Positions 1 through 18,028 of a stretch of 20,000 nucleotides of DNA are shown here, one piece after another. A program made the position numbers and the translations under genes. This stretch comes from Craspedostauros australis (taxonomy: Eukaryota): positions 49,058-69,057 of the forward strand of contig JALAGF010006669.1 of NCBI GenBank assembly GCA_030167865.1, written 5' to 3'. The notes below the pieces were generated by a model. The model saw nothing but the letters and a program-made list of their open reading frames with translations. It had not been told where the DNA came from and ran no database searches. Position 1 is the stretch's first letter. The number at the start of each line of letters is the position of its first letter.

Positions 1-1234
1 GCCATGTGCAGTGCTGTGTTGTCATCAACACGAACACTCGGCCAGTGCTATTGAAGCAGCCTCAGCACGAATTCCCCGCGTGGAAGCTTGAACAACTGAT
101 GGAGCGTTGTGTCACCATCGTTGCTTTTGCGTCGATATCGATGATACCATGGATCATGACTCGGTGTCTTGCCATTGTTGTCTTGGACAGTGGTATCGAT
201 GGCATCCGGATCCAGGGAATGCAGGTACAGCACCACGGAGTGATCTTGATTCAAGCTCATGTGGTGAAGCAGTGTCTAACCCTACTTGTTCCTTCTCGCG
301 AAGTCCATGGCGGCTTTGCCTGATATCTCCATTTGTGCAACTAGCTGTGCCGGATTGGTATGGCATGCCATCTCAAAAACCGTGCAGTCCTCCTTGGCAC
401 ATATGTCAAGATCGAGATGATTCGCTCTCAACAAGACCATCATGATGCTCGTATCCTAGCGGCTGCTGACAATATGGAACCGCGTTTATCTTCCTTCATC
501 TTTACAGTTGATGCCAATTGCCAAACCATGCGTCGCTGACATAGTGAAGTACCGTTTTGCCTTGGTTGTCTGTTGAATCGACAAACGACTTCGACTTGCC
601 CCAGGTGAATCAAGTACTCCACGATCGACACATTTCCAATCTGCCACGCGAGATGCAGCACTGTGCAGCCCTTACCATCCCGCTTGAAGAGCATCCGGTT
701 GTCAGGCTTTGCTTCCATGAAGCACTTGGCAACAGGAAGCTGCTGATTGTTGCACGTGATGTGGATCGGAAGATTGCCATCTTCACATGCCTGGAGCGTT
801 TCGACTAGATGCTTCACCAGCGCTTTTGCTGCTGGTGTGGCAAGCGCAATGAAACAGAGTGCATCCATCTTTGTCCGCGGCTTCTGTGTCAACCCATCCT
901 GGGTTGGATTCCATCAGGTATTTTCCACGGCCGTCCTTCCCGAGACACATGCTACCATGAGTGGCGTTCTCTTGCGTGCGTTGTGAGAATTGAGGTCCGC
1001 CTTCGTGGGATGTGATCCGATGAGGTACTTGACGACGGAAATGGACCTACCATCACAAGCCCAGTGAAGCGGGGTGTCGCCTTCCACGTCCCGAATGTTG
1101 GCAAGGAGCTTCAACTGATCTGACTCTACCATGGATGGGAGTGTTTGCAGATCGTCGCTTTCGCACGCACGGTGCACGGCAAGGGCAGAATCATCTACTC
1201 TGACGTCATCGTTGAATAGTCGATCACCTCACAT
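1..1234 (-). pseudogene. Ankyrin-repeat protein pseudogene (runs off the window's left edge)
   Basis: Ankyrin motifs are spread over broken minus-strand frames: GDTPLHWAC and KRTPLMVAC (914-1177), GNLPIHITC and GCTVLHLAW (440-892), G*TLLHHM, NGKTP and GDTTLHQL (~48-285), DNTALHMA (1-47). They are separated by stops and frameshifts. The in-frame candidate ATG at 1234 is followed directly by TGA. Confidence 0.85.
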
Positions 1235-1773
1235 TGAGTCGCCGTTGGATGTGATGTATTGTAACGTATTGTGAACCTGAGAAAAAAGCAAGAGTGTGCA
1301 ACTGGAGTGGAGTGGATTGTTGAGCAGAGTGGTCATGATCGGTTGCGATCGCGTTGTTGTGCGATACTTGTCTGTGAGGGCAAATCGCGTCCTCTGTTGC
1401 TGATTCGTTGGTTTCGCGCCATGAAAAACACATTTTAACGGTCCCTAACCGTTGGCTTCAGAATTCCACCCAACAATCGGAGAACGGTATCTTTCGGCCG
1501 CGTGTTGCCGCCAAGAACACAAGAGACGAGAGACACGCAAATGCGCACCCACAGAACGACACCATGGCGGCGCCAACCAGTCCAGATGGCATGAGAGCGC
1601 ATTTACTCGGACTCGTACTCTACCTCACTGTCATCCTATCTTCCGATCTGCCCCACCTTGTCACCACTCGTGTTGAAGGCCGATAGTAGCAGTCGGCACC
1701 ATCATCACTGCGGCAACCACAGAGTGCGTGTCAGGTCGGCTGCACCAGCAAGCGCGAAATCGACGGAACCACC

Positions 1774-4700
1774 ATGGCGCGCCCCATCCCACAGGTGAGA
1801 ACGCGCCGAAAGAAGCGCAAGGCTTTGAATCACATCGACCAAAACGTGGGGCAAGCCAATGCTGACTTGCTGCAGAAGAAGACGAAGCCAAGAGGCATCA
1901 GCTACAGCGCTATCTCGCTTTCGGATAGCCCTTTTGCTTTTGCCACATGGGAGAAGAACCTCCTGGCATCGGCCAAGACCCCGAAGATGAGCAACGTGCA
2001 GGGGCGGGAAACGGAGAAGCGGAAGGCAATAGCCGTCAACGCTGCAACCCAAGTCCTTGACGAAAAAGAGGGAGCAGCCAAACGCGCACCCTTGCTTTCG
2101 GCGTCGAGAACAGACACGATGTCTGCGGAGGGAGCGAAGAAGACCAAGAACGAGACCAAGACCAAGCACATGGCCGATAGACAGGAACAAACATTGCGAC
2201 CGCAAGCGGCGGCGATCGTGCAGGTGAAATCGCATCTACGCAGAGGTCAATCAGCGGGAGACACGGAAGACGATGGCTTGGATTTCTGTACAGTGTCACC
2301 TCGCCCCCCTCCAAGTGGTCGTAACGTCACTCACCGACGAAAACGGAATCGGAATCGGAAGCCTTCAGGCAAGGAAGAACGAGATGAGGGCACAGCGCAG
2401 AGTCTGCCTGCGCAGCGCAAGTCTCCGTCACACTCTCAGCAAGCCTCAGATACTGGTGCTGCATCTCGTCCACAAACCGATGTTGAGTTGAAGAAGGGTG
2501 CCGCTGTTGGAGACTGTCGCGCAGCGTCTCATCCCAGCGACAAGGGTCCACAACAGCAAGGTGCGAACAACGCCGACGGGGATACTGGAGATACCGATAC
2601 CAAGCATCAAGCTGTGGATGGATCTGGTCCCCTCCCTCCTGATTCCAACTTGGATTCGCACAGCCAACAGAAACAACAGAATGATACAGAGGTGCAAGCA
2701 GAGCAGCATAGTACGACCGCAGCAGAACCTGCTCCATCGGGTGATGGCGCAGGCCACAGAGTGACGGCGGCACAGCTTTCAATAGAGAAGGTGGACATTG
2801 AGAGTGGACAAGGTGTCAAGCACCCCGATGGCCAAACTGATCATGACGCAGCCGGCACACACAGCAACGATGGAGACAGTGAGTGTTCGTCGGATATGGT
2901 CATCGCATCAAGTGGCAGTTCTTCATGCATGGAGCATGTGGCTGAAGACCTACAACGTGAGGCAGGCGACGGCGACTGCACTGAGTCCGACGCAGATACC
3001 ACGGAATCCATGCAGATTCTCGACAAGACTTCAGGAGAGGATCATCGCAACCACCACTTGCAGCAGATATTTGAACGAAACTGTGCTCATATTCACGTAC
3101 AACGGACGAAATCAGCTCAAAGTCACACCACTCATGAGAGAGCTCAGAGCAATTCCGCCTTTCAATCACTGATCGATCGTTTGAAAACATCAAGCAGCAA
3201 CGCTGCTGTCGGCGTCGCATCACAAGCGTGTGATTCGCACAAGAAGAGTGGCATCACCAGCAGTCGATGTCGCGAAGCGATATCATCGGTGCCACTTGGC
3301 GAAGGATGCGTAGGTGCCCGTGGGTCGGAGGCACATGGCAAACGTGGCACTGTTGATGAGAAGGACAACGACGACCACAACTGCAGCAATGAAGAAGAAG
3401 AAGACGATGATGATGCTTCAATCGCCGTTTGGTCTCTCGATGATGACACCAGTATTCCCACCGAGATTCATGTCCAAGGGCGTCGCTTCGTCCACCCGGC
3501 ATTGCCGCCAGGATGGACAGTCCACACATCCAAAACGCGCGATCGTCCATACTACAAACACCCCGACTTCGGAAGCACGTGGCATTGCCCCGTCATTCTC
3601 CCCTTGAAGATGCCAGGTCACCGTAGATCACTGATATCGGTGCGTGACGAAAAGGCTGACATGGAAGACGACAATACCAACGGCGATCGTATGGATGGGG
3701 CTATCGATGGCATCCGATTGCGGCCAGCCTCGATGACTCAGGGAGGAAAAGTGGGACAGCTGAAACCGATGCATCTCGTGGAACGGCAGAAAGGTGCCTC
3801 CCGACGCACCGCGGCTAGAACGAATGTGTTGGGACAACGAGAGCACTCTCGCGGCGGCCGGCATTCTCCTGCCCAGAGCGACCAATTCGAAAGCTCCATG
3901 TCCGACCTCATCGACACCGTCATCGAAATGAAAGAGCAGCACAATGCGCGCTCCTCTCGAGTGAATCTGCGAGTCGATTCTGCATGTACACCAATAGTGG
4001 GCGCGGCTGCGAATGGGCGATCCAGCATCTTCAGACGTTTGCACCACGCAGATGATGGCACGACGCCACCGTCGGCGTTCGGTGCCACCCAAGCCTCGCG
4101 TCCTCTCCGCTCTTCACTGTCTCCGCTTCAAGGCCAAACTCAAGCACATTCACGGCTGCAGTCTATTGCTGACCCGAATCCTCGACGGGGCCGACATGAG
4201 GCAATCCGAGAACTTGAGCACAACCCTGCGGCATCCACAGCTGTCCACCGCGACGATCGTAACAGCAGGCCTCCGAGTCGCAAGGCCACTATCAACAGCC
4301 CGTTGCGCCAAGCTGCTTCACGTCCCTCAACTTCGATCGCACCTTTGCCCAATGTCCCGAGACCCCGGCGGAGTCTTGGGCCGAGAAGCAGCACGCCGGT
4401 TCACAACACGAATCCCTCTCGGTCATACATCGGAGCATCGATGAGTAGATCGAAGACTGGCACATCAGGCGCAGAAGCAGGGCGCTTGGGGCTTCAAAGT
4501 CATCCAGACGAGCAATGCGGCGAGGGCGGCATGTACGATGGCAAGGGCAGTGGGAATGTACAGCAGCAGCGCCTCTGCAACCCGAGAACTACGTCAGTTG
4601 AGCAAAGCGCTAGCCCATGGACTCCCGTCGTGCCAAGATTGATCTTCGGTCAACAGAGTGACAAATCTGCAGCTCCACCGAGATTTCAGACCAAGCTGCG

Positions 4701-6060
4701 CGGCAATGTCCAAGGTCCCGGTGTGTCTGCAACTGCCCCGCGCCACACGCACGACGAAGGACGCGCTGCACGCCAGACAACTGGATCGAGGTCCAACAGC
4801 GAGAAGTTTTCGTTCCAGGCCGTTGGGACGGTTGCCGAACGCTTGAGCAAAAGAATGCTGCGGCCTTCGTCGACGGTAGCTGGGATAGAGCAACCGCACC
4901 CCGTGCCAGCTGTGCGCGGGTTGAATTGGAAGCCATCAGTCATCGCCCACGTCGCCGCAGCGAATCAACGTTTTCTCGTAGCCGATGGCGGTGCATACCA
5001 AGCTCGCCCCAGGGTTCGGAATGAGGCAAACACTGCAACGGTCGACGATCTCTCCGCAGCGCTTGCTAAGGTCGCAATTTCGCCGGCTCTCGATGTCAGT
5101 GCTGGTGGTGTGTTACATCCGGGCGATGTTGACAGCTCACCGCATGTTTCTGAATATCAAAATAAAGACGACAAGAAGCAGCATCAGAGTGAGGACGGCC
5201 ACCCCCTCCGTGATCATGATGTTCATGGTCATGCAACGCCTGATCTTGATGGTGGTGCCACTGATGACGATGACGCAGTTGGGATTATTGGTCAAGATGA
5301 GCAACTTTCGTCGAGAGCTGAGGAGGAGCTGATGAAAGCAGGTAGCGACGGGTCGCCCGAGGATGACTTGGACCTGGATGCAATTTCTTCGCCAATGCAA
5401 CACACAACGGATGGGCCTCGTGTCGGCCGTGGCCGGTTGAGCGCAAACGACGACCCGGGCACTGTTCCACCTGTGAGCGACGCTGGCCACAAGGGCGGCG
5501 GCCCGACATCTCCGCCAAAACGTACAGTAGAGATGCAAGACGGCCCAAAGCGACAAGATGGTAGGGAGAAAGCCGCTGCAGCACCCCAGTCACCCTCGCA
5601 GTCTCCTTCGGCATTGGCGCGGCGAGCATCACTGCTGCCGTTGCCTGCGTCTGTCGACTCGAAGGAGAACGATGTTTTCTTCGACTCCATGGGTGGAGAC
5701 AGTCCACTCAGTATCGATTGCGGCAACCGCCACGATCATCAAGGCAATGACACAGATTTTGACTATGATGCGGTGTCAAACAGTTGTGGCGGCCACTCTG
5801 GCACGCATCGCCTTGCCAAACGCAGATCTAACGCAACCAAATCGTCGATGAAGACCAAATCCAAACAAGTCAGCGAATACGTGCTGCGGCAAAAGGACCC
5901 GCTCTGTCCGCTGCAACGCTTGGATACGATCGTCGACGAACGAGGACGAAGGCGCAAGCGAGACCGTTCGGCCCGGACGCTGGCTGATTACTTCACTCAT
6001 GTCTTCTACCGGCCACCCCCGCGTTCCAAACGCCCAGGTAAACGCTCTTCAAACAAGTAG
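1774..6060 (+). CDS. Large, mostly low-complexity/disordered protein with a single WW domain (1428 aa), probably nuclear
   Basis: Uninterrupted 1428-codon ORF. WW motif LPPGWTVHTSKTRDRPYYKHPDFGSTWHCP at 3502-3591. Basic NLS-like clusters (RRKKRK, RRKRNRNRK, RRRKR). Confidence 0.85.
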   Translation: MARPIPQVRTRRKKRKALNHIDQNVGQANADLLQKKTKPRGISYSAISLSDSPFAFATWEKNLLASAKTPKMSNVQGRETEKRKAIAVNAATQVLDEKEGAAKRAPLLSASRTDTMSAEGAKKTKNETKTKHMADRQEQTLRPQAAAIVQVKSHLRRGQSAGDTEDDGLDFCTVSPRPPPSGRNVTHRRKRNRNRKPSGKEERDEGTAQSLPAQRKSPSHSQQASDTGAASRPQTDVELKKGAAVGDCRAASHPSDKGPQQQGANNADGDTGDTDTKHQAVDGSGPLPPDSNLDSHSQQKQQNDTEVQAEQHSTTAAEPAPSGDGAGHRVTAAQLSIEKVDIESGQGVKHPDGQTDHDAAGTHSNDGDSECSSDMVIASSGSSSCMEHVAEDLQREAGDGDCTESDADTTESMQILDKTSGEDHRNHHLQQIFERNCAHIHVQRTKSAQSHTTHERAQSNSAFQSLIDRLKTSSSNAAVGVASQACDSHKKSGITSSRCREAISSVPLGEGCVGARGSEAHGKRGTVDEKDNDDHNCSNEEEEDDDDASIAVWSLDDDTSIPTEIHVQGRRFVHPALPPGWTVHTSKTRDRPYYKHPDFGSTWHCPVILPLKMPGHRRSLISVRDEKADMEDDNTNGDRMDGAIDGIRLRPASMTQGGKVGQLKPMHLVERQKGASRRTAARTNVLGQREHSRGGRHSPAQSDQFESSMSDLIDTVIEMKEQHNARSSRVNLRVDSACTPIVGAAANGRSSIFRRLHHADDGTTPPSAFGATQASRPLRSSLSPLQGQTQAHSRLQSIADPNPRRGRHEAIRELEHNPAASTAVHRDDRNSRPPSRKATINSPLRQAASRPSTSIAPLPNVPRPRRSLGPRSSTPVHNTNPSRSYIGASMSRSKTGTSGAEAGRLGLQSHPDEQCGEGGMYDGKGSGNVQQQRLCNPRTTSVEQSASPWTPVVPRLIFGQQSDKSAAPPRFQTKLRGNVQGPGVSATAPRHTHDEGRAARQTTGSRSNSEKFSFQAVGTVAERLSKRMLRPSSTVAGIEQPHPVPAVRGLNWKPSVIAHVAAANQRFLVADGGAYQARPRVRNEANTATVDDLSAALAKVAISPALDVSAGGVLHPGDVDSSPHVSEYQNKDDKKQHQSEDGHPLRDHDVHGHATPDLDGGATDDDDAVGIIGQDEQLSSRAEEELMKAGSDGSPEDDLDLDAISSPMQHTTDGPRVGRGRLSANDDPGTVPPVSDAGHKGGGPTSPPKRTVEMQDGPKRQDGREKAAAAPQSPSQSPSALARRASLLPLPASVDSKENDVFFDSMGGDSPLSIDCGNRHDHQGNDTDFDYDAVSNSCGGHSGTHRLAKRRSNATKSSMKTKSKQVSEYVLRQKDPLCPLQRLDTIVDERGRRRKRDRSARTLADYFTHVFYRPPPRSKRPGKRSSNK

Positions 6061-6292
6061 GAGGATTACCCATATCCGTACATTTGGTATAGGTGTCTGA
6101 ATGCTCGCAATGCACTTTTCTGTTGTTGTTGTTTTCGCATATGCTCACTGTGGTCGAGAACGCTTGCAGTCATGCGAGGCTGCAGCCATCGTCAAGCAAC
6201 GGTCATTGCGAAGCAGATGGTTCGTTGTCCAAAGGAGAGATAGAAGGTTCTACTATTCACTCGTACAGCATGGTGGCGTCACCAAGCTTCTT

Positions 6293-7161
6293 CTAGTAGC
6301 CAATGATTTGTGTCACCTGATCTGCCGTCAGATCCAGCCGGAGAGGAACCGCCACCACCGGAATAGATCCCGCCCTTGGTGTCTTGTCTGTCTCCTGTAT
6401 TTGTGCCAGGACATAATCCAACTTCATGATTCCGCAGTTGTGATGGACACAAGAGGAGTGAGAGTGAGAGTAGGGGGCAGACGAAGAGCCACAAGCATTG
6501 TCAGCAAGTACAATAGGTCGAGTACTTGTACATATGGCACATGCATGGCGGTGGAGGATAGAATAGAATAGAAAAGTAGAGCAGAGCATACAGATACTCG
6601 TACACTCACCTGATCATACTTTTGCAAGATTTCCACCACGGCCTGTAGATGGCAGAGGTAGTCCAATTCTGTTTCATGTCTGAATCTGCGTCCCTCCAGA
6701 TGATACGGCATCACATTGAGGTACATCTTGCGAAAGCCGAAGCTGTCCACCCGGTTGAAATCGACATCGTAGCATTTCCCCCACTTGCCGAGGATGGCGT
6801 CGCGAAGTCCGTACCCATCGAAGTCGCCATCATCATTTGCAGACGCAGACGCAGTCGCCGTCGCTACCTCTGCTTCCGACGCACGTTGCGATGAGCCTAG
6901 CGATGAACTTTGCAGTTGCTCCGCTTTCCTCTTCTGGAAAGCCGACATGTCCAGCTCTCCCTCTTCAGCAGACACATCTCTGCTGCTGGCATCTTCATCG
7001 CTCGTGTCTTTGTTCGTATTCCAGAAACCCAGCGCGGATCTTGTCCTGCGACCTGCGCTTTTCGATGTCACGGGCAGCCGATCGTGCTGGATGACGAAAG
7101 CCGCGAGGACCTGGCATGACACAATCGCCGTCAAGCAAGCGAGCGCGGTAGCTGGCTTCAT
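6293..7161 (-). CDS. DUF3067 family protein with predicted bipartite plastid-targeting presequence; 2 exons (7161-6610, 6421-6293), ~226 aa
   Basis: MKPATALACLTAIVSCQVLAA|FV resembles a signal peptide + ASAFAP-type cleavage. The core LRDAILGKWGKCYDV..MYLNVMPYHLEG..ETELDYLCHLQAV matches the DUF3067 pattern. Donor CAG|GTGAGT at 6609 and acceptor AAG|TTG at 6422 join KYDQ to LDYVLAQIQETDKTPRAG..AVPLRL in frame (188-nt intron). Confidence 0.85.
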
Positions 7162-7180
7162 GTTGTGGCAGAAAGAGTAT

Positions 7181-7209
7181 GAACGATGAACGATGGACGA
7201 TGAACGATG
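7181..7209. repeat. Short 7-bp tandem repeat (GAACGAT)x4 just upstream of the DUF3067 start
   Basis: gaacgat gaacgat ggacgat gaacgat g. Confidence 0.7.
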
Positions 7210-7408
7210 CACAATGGGCGATGGACAGGGAGGAGGTGCTTGCTGGGTGTTGTGGTGTTGTCCATTGTTGCGGTGAGATACCGACAACATGCCCGTTTGA
7301 AACGACCGTTCATATTTCTGACGACGGTCCAACGGCCATTCTCAGTCTTGTATTCGATGTGCACGAGCTGTGTGACCGTTGCGAAAGATACCGCCTTGTT
7401 GGATCATT

Positions 7409-7430
7409 AGAGAGTTATCGCATGTAACTT
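7409..7430 (+). repeat. Left terminal inverted repeat AGAGAGTTATCGCATGTAACTT (preceded by TSD ATT 7406-7408)
   Basis: Matches the reverse complement of 14176-14197 at 13 + 7 positions around a 2-nt mismatch. Confidence 0.92.
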
Positions 7431-7506
7431 CAATGAGTCCCGGGGTACAAAATAACCTGATAGAGATATTTTTCGGGGGGTACGGGCGAGCCAGCCACTC
7501 CTTAGA

Positions 7507-7549
7507 TTTACATGCCATGCGTTTTGAAGCTTTTATTTTACATGCCATG
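7507..7549 (+). repeat. Subterminal 13-bp direct repeat TTTACATGCCATG x2 (30-bp spacing)
   Basis: Exact copies at 7507-7519 and 7537-7549, ~100 bp inside the left TIR. Confidence 0.7.
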
Positions 7550-8056
7550 TAACTCCAACAGTCCCGCCAAATGAGAACTCCACGCGGAAGTAAAGTGAAT
7601 TGACAATTTGTTACCCAATCATAGTCGCACACTTCTGGTCTATTCGCATCTTCATTGTTCTCGAGTTTGCCTTGTTTCTTTTTTAGATTAGCGTCAATGT
7701 GAACGGTTCGACCCAATTTTCGTGGTCGAAGGGATCGTGTTTCTCCGCACGTCCTTCGTTGCGTCTGTTGGTGCAGCTGCCGCAAAAGCGCGGGCAGATG
7801 GCGCGAAACTGACGAATGCCACTTACGTCATTCGAAGATGCAGCACAACAGCAGGCAGCCACCATCAGCACCATGCCAGAAAAAAAACAAACAAAACAAC
7901 AACAAGCCGGTCACCGATTTGTGTTGAGAGAAAAACTGATGTGTTCGAACAGAGCGAGATCCCTCTTCATCCACACCCAAACAACAATCATCTTCCCCAC
8001 ACATCCATCTTGTTCACACACCCTTCATCGCTCATCCATTGAGATACTATGCCATC

Positions 8057-9541
8057 ATGTCCTCCCCTCTCCAGTCGGACCACCCACATTGGCTTCCTTC
8101 CGATGGAAGTGAAATCGATGACGAGAACAGCACTCACAGCAGCGCCATGAGCATTCGCTCCATCACCGCCAAATCTATTCCTGCAAATGCAACCCCAGCC
8201 TCCATTCGTGACGACGCCGCTGACGTTGATCCACCTGCTGCAGGTCCCTCTGACGAGGTCGTCGTCCTCCCAGATGGCCTTGTTGATGAAGGTATGGCCA
8301 CCTCCGACGAGGAGATTGACACTGCAACGATGAAGATCCTCTCCATCCCAACCACAAAGCGCGTCAACCGGTCGACGGCGAGGGCTCTGCGTGCTGTTCA
8401 GGCCGCCAAGTCAGCCACCAAGTACCTCAAGGTCAAGAAGGAGAAGACCGACAACACCATCCCCTCATCGTTGCAGGTGAAGATCAAGAAGGAGAAGACT
8501 GATGACAGCATCCCCTCGTCATCCTCAAAGGCTGCAAAAGCATCACGTACTTCCAAGCAGAAGGGCACGGCCCGAGGACACACTCACATGATGTACTCGA
8601 TGGAGTACCCCCCAGTGTACCCCTGGATCGAGATGCCGCGCCCCATTGATGTATCCATGATGATGTACGTGTGGGCCAACGACCCCAAGCCTTGGGAGTC
8701 CGTTTCTCTGCATTATTGGAAGGCATGCAGTCAGCATCTCTTCAAGTCAAAGGCATTGGGGTTGAACAAGGTGCCTCGCGCAAGAGGTCTTGCCGAGCGG
8801 TTCGAATACCTGATGGTGTTTGTGGACTACTACATTCAAGACCAAGATCACAGGACAGGTGGCAACGAGTCCTATCCGGACTACTTGAAGAAGCTCACCG
8901 AGATCCGAGAGCTCCGACATTTGTTCTCCTCGAAGAAGAACAACACAGTGGAGCAACAACAGGAGGAGAAGCGGGTTATTGAGAATATGTTGGATCGGAT
9001 GCTGGGGAAGCGTCCTCCCATTCTCATCTGCAGCTCCTCAAAAGGGAAAGCGAAGAAGGGTGGCAACAGCGGCAACAGTGCCCAGTCCTCGGATGACTCA
9101 TCAAAAAAGAAGGCATCAAAGAAAACAAGAACTTCTGTACATGATGTGAAGGAAGAGCACAAACAAACTCTCCTGCTCGCAACTGCATTGGAGAAGGCTC
9201 AGGAAAAAATCTGTGAGCGGATTGACAAAAAGAAGAAAAGATCCAATCCACCTCCAATCAAGGTGGTGGACATCAACTGCATTGCTGCCACTACCTCTCC
9301 AGGCACTGCAGCCACAGATTGCAATTCTCTCACCAGCTCCGCAACATTGCCACTTTTGCATGCTCTGCACCAGCAGCAAGAGCTGCTTCAAGACATGAAG
9401 CACAAGCAACAGCAACAGCACGAGCGCGCTGAGCAACATCATCATGAGGTGTTCGCTCAGCAGGCAAGCATTGCCACCAGCTTGAAGGAGCTTGTTGGCA
9501 TCCTTGGCAAGCAACAATCGAATGGCACTCAATCACCATGA
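8057..9541 (+). CDS. Transposon second protein: Myb/SANT(trihelix)-like DNA-binding partner of the Harbinger transposase (~494 aa)
   Basis: Intact ORF inside the TIRs; first ATG at 8057 (the track's 8039 start is TTG). The central PWESV..YW..RGLAERFEYLM..DHRTGGNESY..LKKLTEIREL resembles the W...RF..L...(S/T)G..E.Y..L.EI pattern of Harbinger partner proteins. Lys-rich segments and a Q/E-rich coiled-coil C-terminus. Confidence 0.75.
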   Translation: MSSPLQSDHPHWLPSDGSEIDDENSTHSSAMSIRSITAKSIPANATPASIRDDAADVDPPAAGPSDEVVVLPDGLVDEGMATSDEEIDTATMKILSIPTTKRVNRSTARALRAVQAAKSATKYLKVKKEKTDNTIPSSLQVKIKKEKTDDSIPSSSSKAAKASRTSKQKGTARGHTHMMYSMEYPPVYPWIEMPRPIDVSMMMYVWANDPKPWESVSLHYWKACSQHLFKSKALGLNKVPRARGLAERFEYLMVFVDYYIQDQDHRTGGNESYPDYLKKLTEIRELRHLFSSKKNNTVEQQQEEKRVIENMLDRMLGKRPPILICSSSKGKAKKGGNSGNSAQSSDDSSKKKASKKTRTSVHDVKEEHKQTLLLATALEKAQEKICERIDKKKKRSNPPPIKVVDINCIAATTSPGTAATDCNSLTSSATLPLLHALHQQQELLQDMKHKQQQQHERAEQHHHEVFAQQASIATSLKELVGILGKQQSNGTQSP

Positions 9542-9854
9542 GCAATCCTTCAAAAAATTGCTGCTGTGTTTTCTCACACCTTCTCCTTCCCTTCCATGAC
9601 AGCTGCATTCCGTTTCTCCTCCATTTCATTCTTATGTCCCATTCATGATACACACTTGCACTGCCCCCATCACACCCAACCACCAAATGGATAGCAATAT
9701 CACACTACAGCAAAAAGGACTGATGCATCACCCCATTCCCTATGCTGCCACATCCACGATCCACACCTTGATGCATTCCAGAGTCCATCGGCCTATCCAT
9801 GGATTTGTGCATTTTGCCTCCACCTGCCACACCATCGTTTCCTCTTCTACCGTC

Positions 9855-9892
9855 AACATTGGACATCTGCAAAGTGACAGATGTCCAATGTT
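9855..9892. other. Perfect hairpin: 15-bp stem, 8-nt loop
   Basis: AACATTGGACATCTG (9855-9869) - CAAAGTGA - CAGATGTCCAATGTT (9878-9892). Confidence 0.85.
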
Positions 9893-10514
9893 TGCTTCAA
9901 TCCATCAATCTTTGGATGCAGCCACAACAACAACCCTCAAGCAAAGCGGAGTAAGTCTCAATAGTGAACCCGTTTCCTATACAGAGTACTCAATTTGCAG
10001 TCTTCATGCAACGTCCTGTCTTCTCATGTTCAACCTGCACGCCCAATCGCATCCTTCGTGCACACATACGATGGTATCCGCGGCGCAAACTGCTCGTGTG
10101 CAATTCTAATCCATCGTCGTCATCCTCGTCATCCTCATCATCCTCGCCGCCATGCCTGTGAACGTCCGGTTCATGCTTTCCAAGATGCACGGAGGAGGGC
10201 ACGAGCATTCCTCCAACCAGTCCATGGTACTCCCCATCGTCACTAGCAGCAGCATCCGCGCGCAACACGCCAACTTATTCTCTTGATGGCCATGGTCACG
10301 GCAACCACCATCGCCACCACTGCCATCAACATCGTCACAACATCGGCTGCTTGTGCAATCGATGGCTGGTGGAATGGAAAAATTATGCGCGGATTTGACG
10401 CTAGAATCCTCTGTCCTTTGCTGTCCATGAAATGATCATCATCCCCGTTGCAACACACAATGACAGCCTGCGCCGATCAAGGGTGGATTGAAACACACGC
10501 GCCCCTCTTCGCAT

Positions 10515-12500
10515 ACCATCATCAGCAACGCCATCATCAGCAACGCCATCATTTGCGACGCCATCATCAGCGATGCCATCATCAGTGACGCCATAACTTG
10601 CGACGCCGTCATCAGCAATGCCATCATCAGTGACGCCATCATCAGTGACGCCATCATTTGCGACGCCATCATTTGCGACGCCATCATCAGTGACGCCATC
10701 ATCAGGGACGCCATAACTTGCGATGCCATCATCAGCGATGCCATCATCAGTGACGCCATCATTTGCGACGCCATCATCAGCAATGCCATCATCAGCAATG
10801 CCATCATCAGCAATGCCATCATCAGCAATGCCATCATCAGCAATGCCATCATCAGCAACGCCATCATCAGCGACGCCATAATTTGCGACGCCATCATCAG
10901 CGACTCCATCATCCGCACCGCCATCATCCGCAACACCATCATCCGCAACACCATCATCCGCGACGCCATAATTTGCGACGCCATCATCAGCGATGCCAGC
11001 ATCAGCGACGCCATAATTTGCGGCGCCATCATCACCGATGCCATCATCAGTGACGCCATCATCAGCGTTGCCATCATCACCAACGCCATCATTTGCGACA
11101 TTATTATCAGCGATGCCATCATCAGCAACGCCATCATCAGTGACGCCATAACTTGCGACGCCATCATCAGCGATGCCATCATTTGCGACGCCATCATTTG
11201 CAACGCCATCATCAGCAATGCCATCATCAGTGACGCCATCATTTGCGACGCCATCATTTGCGACGCCATCATCAGCAATGCCATCATCAGCAACGCCATT
11301 ATCAGCGACGCCATCATCAGCGACGCCATCATCAGCGATGCCATCATCCGCAACGCCATCATCAGCAACGCCATCATCAGTGACGCCATCAACAGTGACG
11401 CCATCATTAGCAACGCCATCATCCGCGATGCCATAATTTGCGACGCCATCATCAGCAACGCCATCATTTGCGACGCTATCATCAGTGACGCCATCATCCG
11501 CAACNNNNNNNNNNNNNNNNNNNNNNNNNNNNNNNNNNNNNNNNNNNNNNNNNNNNNNNNNNNNNNNNNNNNNNNNNNNNNNNNNNNNNNNNNNNNNNNG
11601 CGACGCCATCATCAGCGACGCCATCATCAGCAACGCCATCATCAGCGATGCCATCATCAGCAACGCCATCATCAGCAACGCCATCATCAGTGACGCCATC
11701 AACAGTGACGCCATCATTTGCGACGCCATCATCAGTGACGATATCATCAGCGACGCCACAGCAACTCCATCATTTGCGACGTTATTGTCAGCGACGCCAT
11801 CATCAGCAACGCCATCATCCGCAACGCCATCATCCGCAACGCCATCATCCGCGACGCCATCATCCGCAACGCCATCATCAGCAACGCCATAATTTGCGAC
11901 GCCATCATCAGCGACGCCATAATTTGCGATGCCATCATCAGCAACGCCATCATCAGCAACGCCATCAACAGTGACGCCATAATTTGCGACGCCATAATTT
12001 GCGACGCCATCATCAGCAACGCCATCATCAGCGACGTCATAATTTGCGACGCCATCAATTGCAACGCCATCATTTGCAACGCCATCATCAGCGACTCCAT
12101 CATTTGCGACGTTATTGTCAGCGACGCCATCATCCGCAACGCCATCATCAGCGATGCCATCATCCGTGAAGCCATCATCCGTGAAGCCATAATTTGCAAC
12201 GCCATCATCAGCGATGCCATCATCAGCAACGCCATAATTTGCGACGCCATCATCATCAACGCCATCATCAGTGACGCCATCATCAGCGACGCCATAACTT
12301 GCGACGCCATCATCAGCGATGCCATCATCCGTGAAGCCATCATCCGTGAAGCCATCATTTGCAACGCCATCATCAGCGATGCCATCATCAGCGATGCCAT
12401 CATCAGCAACGCCATCATCAGCGATGCCATCATTTGCGACGGTATCATTTGTGACAATATCATCAGCGACGCCATCATTTGCAACGCCATCACATGCGCC
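10515..12500. repeat. Tandem minisatellite of 15-bp units (consensus GCCATCATCAGCGAC), about 126 visible copies, inside the transposon
   Basis: 66 in-phase units at 10515-11504, assembly gap, 10 units at 11605-11754, one 11-nt unit at 11755-11765, 48 units at 11766-12485 and a degenerate last unit. Confidence 0.97.
11505..11599. other. Assembly gap (95 N) within the tandem array
   Basis: Run of N. Its length does not preserve the 15-bp phase, so the true array length is unknown. Confidence 0.99.
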
Positions 12501-12592
12501 ACGAACGCGATGTAACTAGGACATAGTAACAGTTGATTATGTATGGCACTATCGAAAGTGCACAGTATTGAAATGAACGACAGCCAATTGGA

Positions 12593-13807
12593 TCATGGAA
12601 TCAAGCTGATATACTCCTCCATGGACAGCTTTTCAGATGTGTATCGTGATGATTGCTCATTGCCATAGAGTGTGCAACGAAGGTTGGTGAAAAATGCCGC
12701 AATGTACTGCATGTGGGTGAGCGGATTCCAATACATCTTGAGCTGATTCTTCACCCCCAGCAATGGGAAGTTCCTGCCGATCTCCATGAACTCCCACTCA
12801 ACACAGATTCGTGCACTAGACATGTCCTTGTTGCACAGAGCTTCAGAAGAACCCCGAGTGGTGTTGCGAAATGCACCAAGGATGTATGCTGTTGTTTGGT
12901 ACGCCGGATCGCCATACAAACAATACAGCGGATCGTGACCAGGCAACGGCATCAATTGGCGCAAGTGATCCTCAACTTCACTCTCACGCAGCATGTGCAT
13001 GTCATGACAGGCACCCAGGATGGGCCCATAGTAATGAAGAATCAATCCATCTGCACCAACAATCCCTTGAAACTTCACTCCATGCAGATGCTTGTGTCCA
13101 GAATACGCCAATTCTTGGTTGTAGGTTGGTCGGCACGTCGCAGAGAACGTCCCGTCAACGAAGCCGATGACATTGTTGACCAATTGTTTTGTGAGCTTGC
13201 AGACATTGCCAGCGTACTGCTGAAAGCGAGGGTAGAACAGCCCAATGTCACTCAGGTATGGAGCCGCGATTTCATAGAAGTAAAGAAAGAAGGTGGAACA
13301 GATACAAGAAAGCCTGTTGACATCCATATCGAAGCGATCCTCCATGTCAATCAATCGATCTCGATGAGCCAATCGATACAGCATGATCAGAACACCGACC
13401 TCGAAGGACACAGCCAAGCGATTCTTCACCTGTATAGATCTGGGATCGGCCTCGCCAGACACAGCGTTGAATTTTGGCCAAAGCGCGACGAGGATTCGAC
13501 GCAGGTGGTCCTTCCGAAACCGGAAGTGTTTCAGAGCATCCCTCTCTGACAGCTGACGAATTGTGACACCACGATTGCTATGAATCCGTGGAGGATCCAG
13601 TGGAAGAAGGTATTGATGCTGTAGTTGCAGGGTGTGCACGCCAAGGGCAAGCACATTGCGGAAGTGCAGAAGGAGATCCTCCATGTCGTCATCGTCAAGA
13701 TCATCTATTGGAAGCTGAGCTAGCCATGTAGCGGCACGCACGAATCTGGCCCTTGCCTCTGCGCAGGCCTCGCGCTCGGGCAAGCAATTCCACACGCGTT
13801 GAGACAT
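12593..13807 (-). CDS. PIF/Harbinger DDE transposase (HARBI1/DDE_Tnp_4-like), ~404 aa; alternative upstream ATG at 13909
   Basis: N-terminal FRFRK and HTH-like FEVGVLIMLYRLAH..MEDRF; catalytic motifs GFVDGT, YSGHKHLHGVKFQ, GPILGACHD, LYGDPAY, MSSARICVEWEF. No stops or frameshifts. The start at MSQRVW is a best guess. Confidence 0.95.
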   Translation of the reverse strand: MSQRVWNCLPEREACAEARARFVRAATWLAQLPIDDLDDDDMEDLLLHFRNVLALGVHTLQLQHQYLLPLDPPRIHSNRGVTIRQLSERDALKHFRFRKDHLRRILVALWPKFNAVSGEADPRSIQVKNRLAVSFEVGVLIMLYRLAHRDRLIDMEDRFDMDVNRLSCICSTFFLYFYEIAAPYLSDIGLFYPRFQQYAGNVCKLTKQLVNNVIGFVDGTFSATCRPTYNQELAYSGHKHLHGVKFQGIVGADGLILHYYGPILGACHDMHMLRESEVEDHLRQLMPLPGHDPLYCLYGDPAYQTTAYILGAFRNTTRGSSEALCNKDMSSARICVEWEFMEIGRNFPLLGVKNQLKMYWNPLTHMQYIAAFFTNLRCTLYGNEQSSRYTSEKLSMEEYISLIP

Positions 13808-14175
13808 CTTTGGGAGAAGTCCATTGTGGGAACATATGCGAGGCAAGTGGTGCATATGACCAACATGGCAGAGACACTGAAACGGAAGAGGAGGCAAAGA
13901 TACGAACAAGCACGAACATGCAGGTGGAAGAGCTGAACATTATTTTTTGTTCGTTGTGAACGGAAACGACAAGTGGAGAGGAACGAACTTCCTCTTGTGA
14001 GAATCTCGCGCCAAAGCAGGCTACTCGAAAACATGGATAAGGCTAGACAACCTTGATGACGTCATCGTATGATTACTTTGATTTACGTCAGTCCTTCCAA
14101 GATTCAATGTCACAGCGAACCTTGGGGGGAGGCGTCCCAAATCGCGTCACATCGACAGTTTCAGGGGATGGCTTA

Positions 14176-14197
14176 AAGTTACCAGCGATAACTCTCT
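14176..14197 (-). repeat. Right terminal inverted repeat (followed by TSD ATT 14198-14200)
   Basis: AAGTTACCAGCGATAACTCTCT; its reverse complement is AGAGAGTTATCGCTGGTAACTT. Confidence 0.92.
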
Positions 14198-14494
14198 ATT
14201 GGGAATGGTTCGCGTTTGCAAGTTCTCCAAGACGGTAGCTGACGCAGTACAAATGCTCAGAAGATCGAGTTTCAACCACCCACAGGAACAAGTGCACGAA
14301 GTTCGGTCAGATTTTTTCCCAGGTTCGTCATCCCTCCACTGCGCAGCGATCTGCTGCGAGTCCAGGCAGCTTCCCGAAGCAATCCTCCGATTGGTACATC
14401 ATCTCAGCTCCGTTCGGTCCTCGATTTTAACCAAGTCGCATCACATCACATCAAATCACATCACATCGCGATCGAAGAGACGACGACAAGCATC

Positions 14495-15022
14495 ATGGAC
14501 GGCCCTACAGTTCCCTGGACGATGGCGGATGTCAGCAAGTTGGGTGGCAACAAGGCCTTCTTGCTGTACCACGTGATGGGCTCCGGGTGCAGCTACATGA
14601 CGCCGCTGGGCTGCGCGCTGGGTGCTGCCATACTCCCGACGTTCGGAACCACCCTCGGTGGTGGCAAGCCTCTCACCACGTTGCAGGCAGCCGGTGTGGG
14701 TGGCATGGCTGGCGGCGCCCTCGGTGGCACCTTGGGCATGATGGCCATGATCAAGGCGAGCCACAGCAACAATCCCAACATGCCCTGGACCGATGACGGC
14801 ATCCAAATGCGCGTGGATGGCCTGTCACACAACTACATGGTGCGGGCGTTGGACTTGGGCATGTGGTTGGGTGCCGCAGCTGCCGGCGGCGCTCTGCTGG
14901 CGTACGGCGGTCCCCAGAAGCTGGGACTTTCGAGCGGTACCCTGGGTGGTCTGCAAGCCATCGCGTTGGGATCAGCCGTGGGATCCGTCTCCGCGATGGG
15001 TGTCATCTCCGTAACGAAATGA
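14495..15022 (+). CDS. Small Gly/Ala-rich multi-pass membrane protein, DUF1757-like (175 aa)
   Basis: Clean ORF with GC-rich third positions and about four hydrophobic GxxxG-rich segments. DDGIQMRVDGLSHNYMVRALD..G resembles the DUF1757 EG..DR..RL..N..Q.R.D motif (from memory; family call tentative). Confidence 0.75.
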   Translation: MDGPTVPWTMADVSKLGGNKAFLLYHVMGSGCSYMTPLGCALGAAILPTFGTTLGGGKPLTTLQAAGVGGMAGGALGGTLGMMAMIKASHSNNPNMPWTDDGIQMRVDGLSHNYMVRALDLGMWLGAAAAGGALLAYGGPQKLGLSSGTLGGLQAIALGSAVGSVSAMGVISVTK

Positions 15023-15742
15023 GAGGCGGCTCGTACGGTGCCACATACTACCATGCACAGGCAGATGGGATGATTGGATACCAACACGCGAGAGGGACAA
15101 GGTGTGGCACAGTCGTGATGCAGTCGCGATCGCACTTGCAGCGATGCTTGTGACCAGACCTCCGTTCTATTCCGTTCCCTTCCCGTCTGTTAGATTCCTT
15201 TTTGCATTATTTAGATACACATTGAGAATGTGGAGTATTATGAAGGTATCCGCACAGCGGCGGGCGGTGCGATAACTTAGCGACGAGCACTTGTAGCGAG
15301 CAGCTCTGGCTCTTGGCATTGTACGCGACCCATTCGCTTTGAAATCGATGCAACCCCGCACCCATGCATCGGCAACACCAAACCCTGCTTCTGCCCCTGG
15401 TGTGCGCGTAGGTGTTTTGCGACGATCGAGCCGAAATACATGTTCTGCTCTCTTTTCTTGTCAAGAACACAGAGTTCCTCAGGCGCTGCCAAAAGTTGTG
15501 ATGCCGCTACATGTCTGCCCGGAGAGGAGAGTATCATCGTGCATAAATACACGCATGGTATGGTACTCATTGGAATGACGTACGCGATCATCCTCTGTTC
15601 TCTCATTCTTCGTGCGCCAAGCAGTTCAGACAACCAGAGTTCAAACGCGACGAATTCTGGTGGACCATGCCGATGCTCGACTCGGCGCCGCCGACTGTAC
15701 CCCATCGATGTAACGCAATGCACTTAAAAGTGTATGTCCCAA

Positions 15743-18028
15743 TTAGACTTCGGCCATATCCAGCATATGCAGCAGCTCTTGTCCATCCAGCAGATCAAAT
15801 GAATCCTTCCTCGACAATTCCGGCATGAATGACATCGTCTGTATGGGCTCCATGTCGTCGAAGGCGCCGATGTCATCGGTCCTGCATGCGCTGTTGCTTC
15901 CGACGATGCCAACTCCGCCGTATTCCTGGACTGTATCCGGAGGAGACAACGGTGGCGTGACCGTCGGTTCGAGCGGCCTAGAAAGATTGGCCGAAGATGA
16001 TACCGGGGAGACTGTCGTCGGTGGTGTGAATGAGGTGGGAACAACGGCCGGCTTGGCCAATGGCGGATCCAATTCCTTTCGAAGCACCGTGTTGTTGCGG
16101 AAGGCGTGGCTGACCTTCTCGCGAGCCTTCTCAGGCATGACCTCGATCCAGAACTCGGGCTCGTCATCTTCCTGCTGCTTCGTCTTGCTCTTCGTCCCGC
16201 CAGCGTCCTTCTTACCCTTCTTCTGCTGCTTCGATTGGTCCTTCTTCAGGAAGCGAAATCCTTCGCTGTTGATCTGCTTAACGATCTCAATCGTCAACAT
16301 CTGCTTCTCCTTCATCCTGCTCTGCTGGTACTGCTCCCAGTGCTGATCGACGATCTCGGCAAGCCGCAGATTGCCTGGATACTCCTGGTACGGACGCCCC
16401 CGCCCGAGCAGGACGTCTCCGATCTTCGGGATTTCGATGTTGGAGACGCCGATGTCATGACATCTTTGCTGTCGCTGCTGCGCCTCTATCTGCTGTCGCT
16501 CCTTGAGCCACTGCTGGAATGGTTCTGCCAGGACGCGGCCTGTCTCCTTGTCGACTGGGAAATTCTTGACCTTGATGCCGAATGTCATCAACGTGTACAA
16601 ACTTTCGAGAAGTGAGCCTATGCATTGAGCATGAAATGAAATGACGTGGCATGATGTGTGGCATGGTATGGCAGATACGGATAGTTTTGGTGCGAGGTGG
16701 GCATAGGTAGATCGATAAGGGGGCGCGAGGGATCGAGAAGAGAGGTTAGAGTGAAGGCATGGATGTCAAAATTGTCGAATTATGGTGCAATTGCGCGACT
16801 TCACGCGCTGGCACGAGTACTTGCCGCCACCACAACTGCCGCGCTTGTTGCAGCCAAGCACCTGGCGTGTCTCGGTTCGAGATGCGGCGCAATCTCAGAA
16901 CAGCCCTCTGGATACACGAAGGTAGGCGGGCAGGCAGGGGATGTCCACAGACAGACAGTCAGGAGGAGCAGTAGAACAGAGCATTGCATGGAATTGCAAC
17001 TTACCGTTGTGAGCGCGATACCGAACCCGACCGCGGCGACCGATGATGTGCTGGACGGCCGCCATGGGCGCTGCGAGCTTTGGATTGTCGAAGCAGAAAT
17101 GAACGGCCGTGGTTGCCAGGGGATGGCAGGCCAGGAATCTGGAACCGTAGCGGACGAAGCCCATGTCCTTGTATTGGCGGAAGAGCTCCGACTCCTGCTG
17201 GCAGTCGGTGGCGATGCCGGCGTCGTACATGAGCAGCACCACGCCATGCTTCGAGGCGTCCGGGTGGCCCAGGCCGACATCGAAGAGGTACCAGTAGACC
17301 CGCGCGACTGTCTGGATGGTCTTGTACACGGCTCGCTTGCGTGAGAATGCCACGATGACGGGGCGTCCGATGTGATCCCGTCCCAGCCACTGCACGCGGC
17401 CGGTATCAAGGTACTTCTTGTCGTCGTCGAGCAGATCATCGTAGGTGATGGTGCTGCAGAGCTTCTCCAGACCGAAGAGCTCCAGCTTGAGTTCGAAGTA
17501 ATCGACGATGCGTCGCGCTGTCCGCTTGGGGTGGAAGTCCTCGGCGCGCAGGAAGTGGATGCAGAAGTCGAGGGAGGTGAACTTCTTTGGTCTGAGGAAG
17601 GTGGCCTTGTAGTAGGCAGGGCGCTGCTTGATCTTGCGGATTTCGGCGTGGAGCTGCTGCATGCTGGTGCGGAGGACCTCTGGCGTTTCCTTGATCTTGT
17701 CCGAAATGCCGTGGATGTCCTCGTACACCCGCTGCCTCTCGTGGATGGTGAGGGAGTTGAGCTCCTGCACCAGCATGGCCTCCGCCTTGGCCTCGTTCTT
17801 GCGGATCTCATCCGATGGCTGCATCCATTGCAGGGCACTGTTGCCGTTGCTGCCACCGTTGCTGTTGCCATTGCTGTTGCCATTGCTGTTCGCGCCTCCT
17901 CCGCCTCCGCCACTGCCGAACAGAGTGAAGCATCCTGGGGTGCTGCTGTTGCTGGATGGATCAGATACGCAGGAGCTGCCTCCGCTGCTGACGTAGCCTT
18001 CGTCGATGAGGTGCTTGCGCTTGCCCAT
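15743..18028 (-). CDS. Diatom-type CRAL-TRIO-like + DUF6824 domain protein; 2 exons (18028-17005, 16617-15743), ~632 aa
   Basis: Exon 1 contains ELNSLTIHERQRVYEDIHG and FLRAEDFHPKRTARRIVDYFELKLELFG. Donor AACG|GTAAGT (17004) and acceptor CATAG|GC (16618) give RYRAHNG-SLLESLYTLMTFGI (387-nt intron). Exon 2 has DUF6824: DVLLGRGRPYQEYPGNLRL..K..IV..FRFLK..WIEV..AREKVSHAFRN. Confidence 0.9.

Follow-up and report, generated by a model that had tools for sequence, protein, structure and literature searches.

A 20,000-nt stretch of the Craspedostauros australis genome (GenBank assembly GCA_030167865.1, contig JALAGF010006669.1, positions 49,058–69,057, forward strand) very probably carries, at 7409–14197, a single insertion, complete in structure, of a cut-and-paste DNA transposon that has two genes and is of the Pangu/Harbinger2 type. 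We refer to the whole stretch as the window and give element coordinates in window positions. The element proper measures 6789 bp; the interval 7406–14200 counts both flanking ATT triplets as well. It is of a known kind, here a well-preserved single copy enlarged by a minisatellite, and its parts, among them terminal inverted repeats (TIRs) and open reading frames (ORFs), are laid out as follows:

7406–7408, left target-site duplication ATT, identical to 14198–14200
7409–7430, plus strand, left TIR, 22 bp, starting AGAGAG; matches the reverse complement of 14176–14197 at 20 of 22 positions
7507–7558, plus strand, subterminal short repeats confined to the left end: two copies of a 13-nt direct repeat plus an extra TIR core, CATGTAAC
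8057–9541, plus strand, ORF1, a non-transposase protein of 494 amino acids (aa); uninterrupted, tail-to-tail with the transposase
9542–10515, unique spacer, 974 bp, no recognisable gene, no Pfam or Rfam match
10516–12492, 15-bp minisatellite; 131.4 copies with 79% matches by Tandem Repeats Finder
12493–12592, unique stretch, 100 bp, from the minisatellite to the transposase stop codon; GC fraction 0.43
12593–13855, minus strand, DDE transposase ORF, 420 aa; Pfam DDE_Tnp_4, E 9.7e-18
14176–14197, minus strand, right TIR, 22 bp; matches the left TIR at 20 of 22 positions
14198–14200, right target-site duplication ATT, the same triplet as 7406–7408

Both ends can be placed exactly, and the 22-bp AGAGAG repeats and the ATT on either flank lie where the initial annotation had put them. 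On the left, ...GGATC ATT is followed by AGAGAGTTATCGCATGTAACTT..., and on the right ...AAGTTACCAGCGATAACTCTCT is followed by ATT and then by GGGAATGG...; in context, the ATT/ATT flanks read GGATCATT...ATTGGGAA. The two mismatches between the TIRs fall at positions 14–15 of 22. This pair is the top-ranked inverted repeat within 7000–14600, and a search of the 20-kb window with the TIR pattern at up to 3 mismatches returned two sites, both of them element ends, a number reached in 0 of 200 dinucleotide shuffles. Likewise, inverted pairs of 22 nt with no more than 2 mismatches numbered two in the real sequence of 6001–15600, and none of 20 mononucleotide shuffles contained any. The GC fraction is 0.508 in the element versus 0.545 and 0.546 in its flanks, and an Rfam scan of the window found no family. 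The TIR core CATGTAAC occurs twice in the window, as it does at least twice in 16 of 200 shuffles; the left subterminal repeats at 7507–7558 might, very tentatively, be considered candidate binding sites.

The minus-strand gene encodes an intact DDE transposase. DDE families are the only Pfam hits for this protein, and the DDE_Tnp_4 match spans profile positions 1–156 of 158, so that it is alignable as a DDE transposase over the catalytic region, the criterion for a PHIS-type element. The catalytic residues D234 (in 'GF.DGT'), D316 (in 'GDPAY') and E353 (in 'VEW') are all present in a 20-row alignment. The protein is colinear with its 19 homologues in that alignment from M17 to the last residue and keeps 34 of 34 invariant columns. 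Translation probably starts at M17 (13807), where the equivalents of all 19 begin. A search of 5.8 billion proteins yielded 50 relatives at E ≤0.001 among 3377 candidates, with 26–44% identity to the transposase and 40–44% for the best. In a tree of 71 relatives, built without named references, the transposase falls in a 37-row clade with a Shimodaira–Hasegawa-like approximate likelihood ratio test (SH-aLRT) support of 99. One member of the clade, P0017, belongs to a 90% cluster that includes three proteins of the diatom Fragilaria crotonensis. Public diatom records name this transposase group just 'DDE superfamily endonuclease' or 'nuclease HARBI1'. We found no match to the transposase among 72,556 plasmids by tblastn, and no relative in prokaryote genome contigs or in viral contigs. 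A 16-nt TIR-core pattern did hit 13 viral-contig loci; we rejected these as chance, since their flanks agree with the terminus in the window no better than chance, at 17–25 of 41 positions, 16 fixed positions included.

We scanned metagenome contigs with the transposase alignment, which gave 80 loci, and delimited four independent complete elements among them:

L054, 155–2687, 2533 bp, TIR AGAGCG..., flanks AAT/AAT
L071, 200–2987, 2788 bp, TIR A[A/G]GGGTC..., flanks AAT/AAT
L060, 6246–11558, 5313 bp, TIR AGAGC..., flanks ATT/ATT
L024, 609–3170, 2562 bp, TIR AGAGAGG..., flanks ATT/AAT

A further locus, L065, is the same as L060 (99.35% identical, flanks included). The TIRs of all four elements start with AG or AA. 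Counting the window copy, perfect 3-bp A-W-T direct repeats flank four of the five independent elements. The transposases of L054, L071, L060 and L024 all lie outside the 37-row clade that holds the window protein, so the AWT duplication is spread over the whole group and not confined to one twig. These repeats support reading the window's flanks as a 3-bp ATT duplication of the A-N-T type. As a separate matter, the L054 transposase has one in-frame stop, at 756–758, which separates two ORF pieces that share a frame.

A more sensitive TIR scan of 50 loci, for 13-nt inverted pairs with no more than 2 mismatches, returned 2426 pairs and was mostly noise: 46 had identical 3-bp flanks, versus about 38 expected at 1/64. 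Six of its rows had no more than 1 mismatch, and from these L054, L071 and L060/L065 were kept. L012 (flank TAT) was dropped because its left arm occupies the expected place of the transposase N-terminus; L043 (flank GGG) was dropped as GC-rich.

We next compared these features with the groups of the PHIS superfamily, which Han et al. 2015 (PMC4482050), in the available portions of the paper, define by the composition of the duplication. Pangu elements are described there as having ANT duplications, TIRs of 11–40 bp that start with AG or GG, and two ORFs, the second without a recognisable motif; Repbase's Harbinger2 is equated with Pangu in the available text of Kojima 2025 (PMC12730594). The window element has a 22-bp TIR starting AGAGAG (in its relatives AGAGAG, AGAGCG, AGAGC or A[A/G]GGG) and two ORFs, one coding for a DDE-only transposase and the other, ORF1, free of known motifs. 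As a proxy for group membership, we compared the transposase by eye with the DDE blocks printed in Fig. S3 of PMC4482050, in which three features coincide in 11 of the 14 rows for Pangu and in none of the 20 for Nuwa: an F in 'GF.DG' at the first aspartate, a second block whose Q is preceded by at least one extra residue, and an H-D preceded by 'GP..G/W'. The window transposase has all three (IGFVDGT, a single extra residue N, and GPILGACHD), as well as 'MS..R..VEW.F' at the glutamate. Over the first 56 aligned positions, again by eye, it shows about 27 matches to Pangu_HVul versus about 16 to NuwaI_NVec. Taken together, AWT repeats beside AG-starting TIRs in the relatives, the three Fig. S3 features and the lack of any known domain in the second ORF, a trait of 32 of the 34 Pangu families in Table S3 of that paper, support, at the level of sequence, placement in the PHIS superfamily and its Pangu/Harbinger2 type. 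The initial annotation had called an intact transposase, an intact convergent second ORF, an ATT duplication and this affiliation; the first two calls hold up and the other two are supported.

Several observations weigh against reading 7409–14197 as a complete element of this type. A single copy from the source genome was examined (n = 1). The transposase deviates at 17 of the 74 columns that are at least 90% conserved in the other rows of the alignment, where 16 of the 19 rows show 0–4 deviations, and its end branch in the tree of 71 relatives is 1.24, versus a median of 0.41; because that branch is so long, its activity is doubtful. Not every Pangu row in Fig. S3 conforms: three of the 14 are themselves Nuwa-like, which is why the three-feature signature is not the group's definition. 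L024, with its flanks of ATT and AAT, has no direct repeat, and a TA duplication fits it equally well. Lastly, a diverged TIR from the same organism is preceded by TAT rather than ANT. This TIR comes from sequencing run X1, the sole run with matches; we guessed its type to be RNA, it contains a fraction of 0.21 of the sampled words, and its contigs were compared over positions 1–10500. X1 record 2 (573 nt) aligns at 7433–7471 as a diverged left terminus, agreeing by eye at about 19 of 23 TIR positions and then at 36 of 39 bases; its upstream sequence, ending in TAT, is unrelated to the window, and divergence resumes past 7471. This record appears to be another relative in the same organism, older or non-autonomous, that reaches RNA. 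Over 7701–9800, which includes ORF1, X1 has no cover and is uninformative either way.

The termini, flanks, ORFs, transposase domain, minisatellite and AWT duplications of the relatives are directly observed; the transposition chemistry, the role of ORF1 and any present-day mobility are inferred. On the model of other DDE transposons in the superfamily, the transposase, acting through D234, D316 and E353, would recognise the 22-bp AG-starting TIRs, probably aided by the ORF1 protein. It would then excise the element, which would reinsert at an A-N-T trinucleotide through staggered 3-nt cuts, and repair of these cuts would leave the ATT duplication on both flanks.

That the element is young and autonomous, as first proposed, is unproven. 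It may be a structurally preserved, immobile relic, either old or isolated, whose transposase is drifting under relaxed constraint, and we regard this as quite possible, though slightly less likely than not. The deviations at conserved columns and the long end branch point that way, as do the modest 40–44% identity of the best database relative and a minisatellite degenerate enough to show only 79% matches. Moreover, the other ends and pieces detected in the same organism (X1 records 2 and 4, the latter described below) are about 88–91% identical rather than near-identical. Set against decay are the two ORFs, of 494 and 420 codons, which are free of stops, the retention of the catalytic triad and of every invariant column in the 20-row alignment, a perfect duplication, and TIRs that differ at just 2 of 22 positions.

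The second gene is uninterrupted as well, and its product is, by sequence, an orphan. ORF1 matched no Pfam family at E ≤0.01 (a single hit, to DUF6548 at E 0.03, is below the cut-off), and relaxing the threshold to E 10 brought up nothing relevant and no Myb/SANT family. A word-based search of 5.8 billion proteins scored 7999 candidates, none of which reached E ≤0.001. A full HMMER search with residues 165–345 (181 residues) against 1.84 billion representatives found no homologue, its lone hit (E 2e-4) covering a 28-residue low-complexity stretch. The best tblastn match of ORF1 to the 80 metagenome loci has E 5.7. ORF1 gives Atlas leads to MADF and Myb/SANT-like clusters at 0.83–0.88, below the trusted 0.9, and its residues ~196–275 could possibly form a Myb/SANT-like region. 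The single-sequence AlphaFold model of ORF1 has a predicted local distance difference test (pLDDT) score of 47.3, too poor for a structure search. A model of P0059, the second ORF of a relative, reached pLDDT 60.2 with a 6-row alignment; at that quality, Foldseek retrieved nothing from the PDB at E ≤0.001, and the results of a wide VIA structure search were taken up by coiled-coil hits on residues 238–320 (Z 6.7–7.1), so that they bear little on the N-terminal domain.

A convergent second ORF also follows the transposase in L001, L002, L011 and L024, and parts of these ORFs are mutually related (E 1.8e-28 to 5.8e-4). Aligned with them, ORF1 shares both the pattern W...RF and a tail that is helical and charged; hhalign of ORF1 against this family is not significant (P 0.06, probability 0.9%). 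By analogy with other Harbinger-type elements, ORF1 probably encodes a fast-evolving DNA-binding partner of the transposase. A different family of ORFs, about 150 aa long and unrelated to the other second ORFs, adjoins close relatives of the transposase, with 35–97% identity among loci:

L003, 2061–2555, member of the ~150-aa ORF family
L004, 2013–2480, member of the ~150-aa ORF family
L005, 1660–2145, member of the ~150-aa ORF family
L007, 1032–1520, member of the ~150-aa ORF family

These ORFs resemble the RPA_C winged-helix family weakly (best E 4.7e-4, just short of the cut-off) and may encode another partner protein in that sub-branch.

Between the tails of the two genes lies a stop-to-stop spacer of 3051 bp (9542–12592), 45% of the 6789-bp element. 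The initial annotation had described about 3 kb, or some 45% of the length, as unusual internal cargo; the length stands and the cargo does not, since the stretch is mostly 15-bp minisatellite. The array occupies at least 1977 bp, about two thirds of the spacer, and the remaining ~1.07 kb is unique, non-repetitive and without a family match; within it, a 154-aa ORF at 9645–10109 has no Pfam hit. Because a run of 95 N (11505–11599), an assembly gap, lies inside the array, the lengths given for both array and element are the assembler's estimate. Among 94 regularly spaced 15-bp units we counted 26 distinct variants. Of the 108 intervals between units, 94 measure 15; ten intervals of 30 and two of 45 are multiples of 15, one of 115 crosses the N gap, and one of 41, near 11750, is irregular. 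In L002, L001, L011 and L024 the tails of the convergent ORFs are separated by 27, 51 and 470 bp or overlap (stop-to-stop limits). Because the gene tails of these relatives lie far closer together, the 3051-bp spacer is an expansion mainly by the repeat. The spacer was enlarged by repeat expansion, not by captured genes. Nor does the overall size set the element apart: Table S3 of PMC4482050 lists 34 Pangu families of 199–7867 bp, five of them longer than 5 kb.

X1 also contains a 171-nt record (record 4) that is 91% identical to 10350–10500 (13 differences in 151 positions), just before the minisatellite. By this match, a paralogue of the region bordering the array appears to exist elsewhere and to be present in X1. 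Because this border paralogue appears to be transcribed and another copy's diverged TIR occurs in RNA, there is a hint that the array is inherited and not an accident peculiar to this copy. The element could represent an uncatalogued, diatom-borne branch of Pangu/Harbinger2, with a partner protein beyond sequence recognition and a minisatellite heritable in the family; we consider this unlikely. Were it true, the array could matter for the regulation or stability of the element.

It is improbable that the spacer instead encodes a third gene, for a long pentapeptide-repeat protein of (V/I)A(D/N)DG units, translated from the minus strand across the array. On that strand 704 codons, from 10401 to 12515, do form a frame without a stop, its translation passes Pfam Pentapeptide_2 (28.5 bits versus a cut-off of 26.4, E 1.4e-6), and the border paralogue occurs in a run that is probably RNA. 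However, the 15-nt unit is itself free of stops in five of six frames (two of three minus, all three plus), which accounts for the openness of the long frame. No single stretch of the Pentapeptide_2 match passes alone, the first ~255 codons of the frame contain no ATG, and the reading moves to another frame of the unit at the irregular 41-nt spacing. By eye, three of the positions at which the units vary (11, 12 and 14) show the transitions expected at the unit's CpG sites, unlike positions 5, 8 and 9, so that much of the unit variation can be explained without codon constraint. Repeat expansion remains our account of the spacer.

A different reading of the ends moves the start of each TIR to GAGAG and takes the duplication to be a 2-bp TA, as in PHISTA elements, leaving the extra flanking matches to an AT-rich target preference. 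In this model the empty site would read ...GGATCATTATTGGG..., three bases longer than the ...GGATCATTGGG... of the ATT model (...GTTGGATC-ATT-GGGAATGG...). PHISTA elements with TA duplications exist, as described in the available text of PMC12730594, and T-A can be read at every boundary, including both window ends, X1 record 2 and the four related elements; the flanks of L024 (ATTA...TAAT) fit TA and not a 3-bp direct repeat. Yet T-A at both boundaries is inevitable wherever an ANT duplication adjoins a TIR that begins with A, so the pattern is already predicted by the 3-bp model. Under the TA model each perfect 3-bp repeat requires three coincidences per element (~1/64 with all bases equally frequent), yet such repeats are present in four of five elements, and a palindromic target preference would produce complementary, not identical, middle bases. 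In addition, PHISTA elements, which belong to the same superfamily, are placed near Nuwa and carry TET/JBP in that source, whereas the window element has 3-bp repeats and a transposase with Pangu-type features, and no TET/JBP Pfam family was found in ORF1, the transposase, 7816–8112, 9645–10109 or the array translations. We therefore judge the TA reading very unlikely and retain the ATT duplication. A 210-codon host ORF across the joined flanks, at a site between the starts of divergent genes, is in our reading a chance feature; it keeps one frame under both models and does not discriminate between them. Over window positions 1–10500, no X1 contig crosses the insertion site.

That the element is instead a canonical PIF/Harbinger, which duplicates TWA, or a Nuwa element, which duplicates CWG or C|TNA|G, is scarcely credible. 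These groups have in common with it the DDE_Tnp_4 transposase, the second protein of a two-gene layout and the chemistry of the superfamily, and the sub-0.9 Atlas leads of ORF1 to MADF/Myb-like families fit them. But if the TIRs are taken to begin at GAGAG, they are flanked by TTA and TAT, which form no TWA repeat, and neither CWG nor CTNAG occurs at the ends. The 'NRK..HS.N.Q' and 'PG[S].HD' pattern seen in the Nuwa rows is absent from the transposase, and the recognisable Myb/SANT domain of their second protein, as described in the available portions of PMC4482050 and PMC12730594, is not detected in ORF1 by Pfam at E up to 10. As for ISL2EU and Spy, marked by an AT duplication with THAP and YqaJ or by no duplication at AAATTT, respectively, we found no THAP or YqaJ hit, and the flanks are ATT/ATT.

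Among described elements, the closest likeness of this Pangu/Harbinger2-type copy is to Pangu itself, which in the available text of PMC4482050 combines an A-N-T duplication, an AG-starting TIR, a DDE-only transposase and a motif-less second ORF; a Myb domain appears in ORF2 of 2 of the 34 families in Table S3. Unlike Pangu, whose autonomous candidates average ~3487 bp there, the window element spans at least 6789 bp and has a ~2-kb minisatellite between its genes. None of the 34 families comes from diatoms, though three diatom genomes are on the genome list of that study; its stramenopile Pangu hosts are Ectocarpus and Phytophthora. Tail-to-tail, ANT-targeting Harbingers have already been described in the brown alga Ectocarpus, according to the available text of PMC12477816. 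By description they are like the present element in their stramenopile host, two tail-to-tail genes and ANT/AWT duplications, and Pangu_ESil / Harbinger2-1_ES, compared in the same way, is similarly large (7867 bp in Table S3). Bacterial IS5 likewise targets ANT and, in the tree of Han et al. as available to us, sits beside Pangu; the window transposase has negligible sequence similarity to it (NCBIfam IS5_4, E 0.029, 13.7 bits versus a cut-off of 140). The finding matters little beyond annotation and opens no new question about transposition. What it provides is a clean reference copy of this transposase group, complete and with its ends placed exactly, four unrelated metagenome elements as independent examples of AWT duplication, and a flagged assembly gap inside the minisatellite.

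The element sits in a ~0.4-kb spacer between two divergent host genes. Two genes with recognisable domains lie near it:

6246–7290, minus strand, DUF3067 gene, Pfam E 2.2e-16
15743–16765, minus strand, DUF6824-domain gene, E 6.8e-21

The DUF3067 gene starts with its ATG at 7290, and the insertion is 116 bp upstream of that codon and 294 bp upstream of an unnamed plus-strand ORF that starts at 14495. Because it lies between divergent genes, the element could affect the promoters of both. The DUF3067 gene has a 188-bp intron (6422–6609, GT..AG on the minus strand), and an X1 contig bridges 6421–6610 without mismatches; since this contig skips 6422–6609, the stop at 6424 in the plain ORF lies within the intron. 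The DUF6824 domain family is typical of diatoms, and the presence of such a gene in the window agrees with the Fragilaria relatives of the transposase. Farther upstream, at 1774–6060 on the plus strand, a 1428-aa low-complexity ORF has a sub-threshold WW-domain hit (E 0.075, residues 577–598). Just upstream of the insertion site, at 7179–7226, a 7-bp microsatellite of ATGAACG/ATGGACG in about 7 copies overlaps the DUF3067 coding region in its 5' part.

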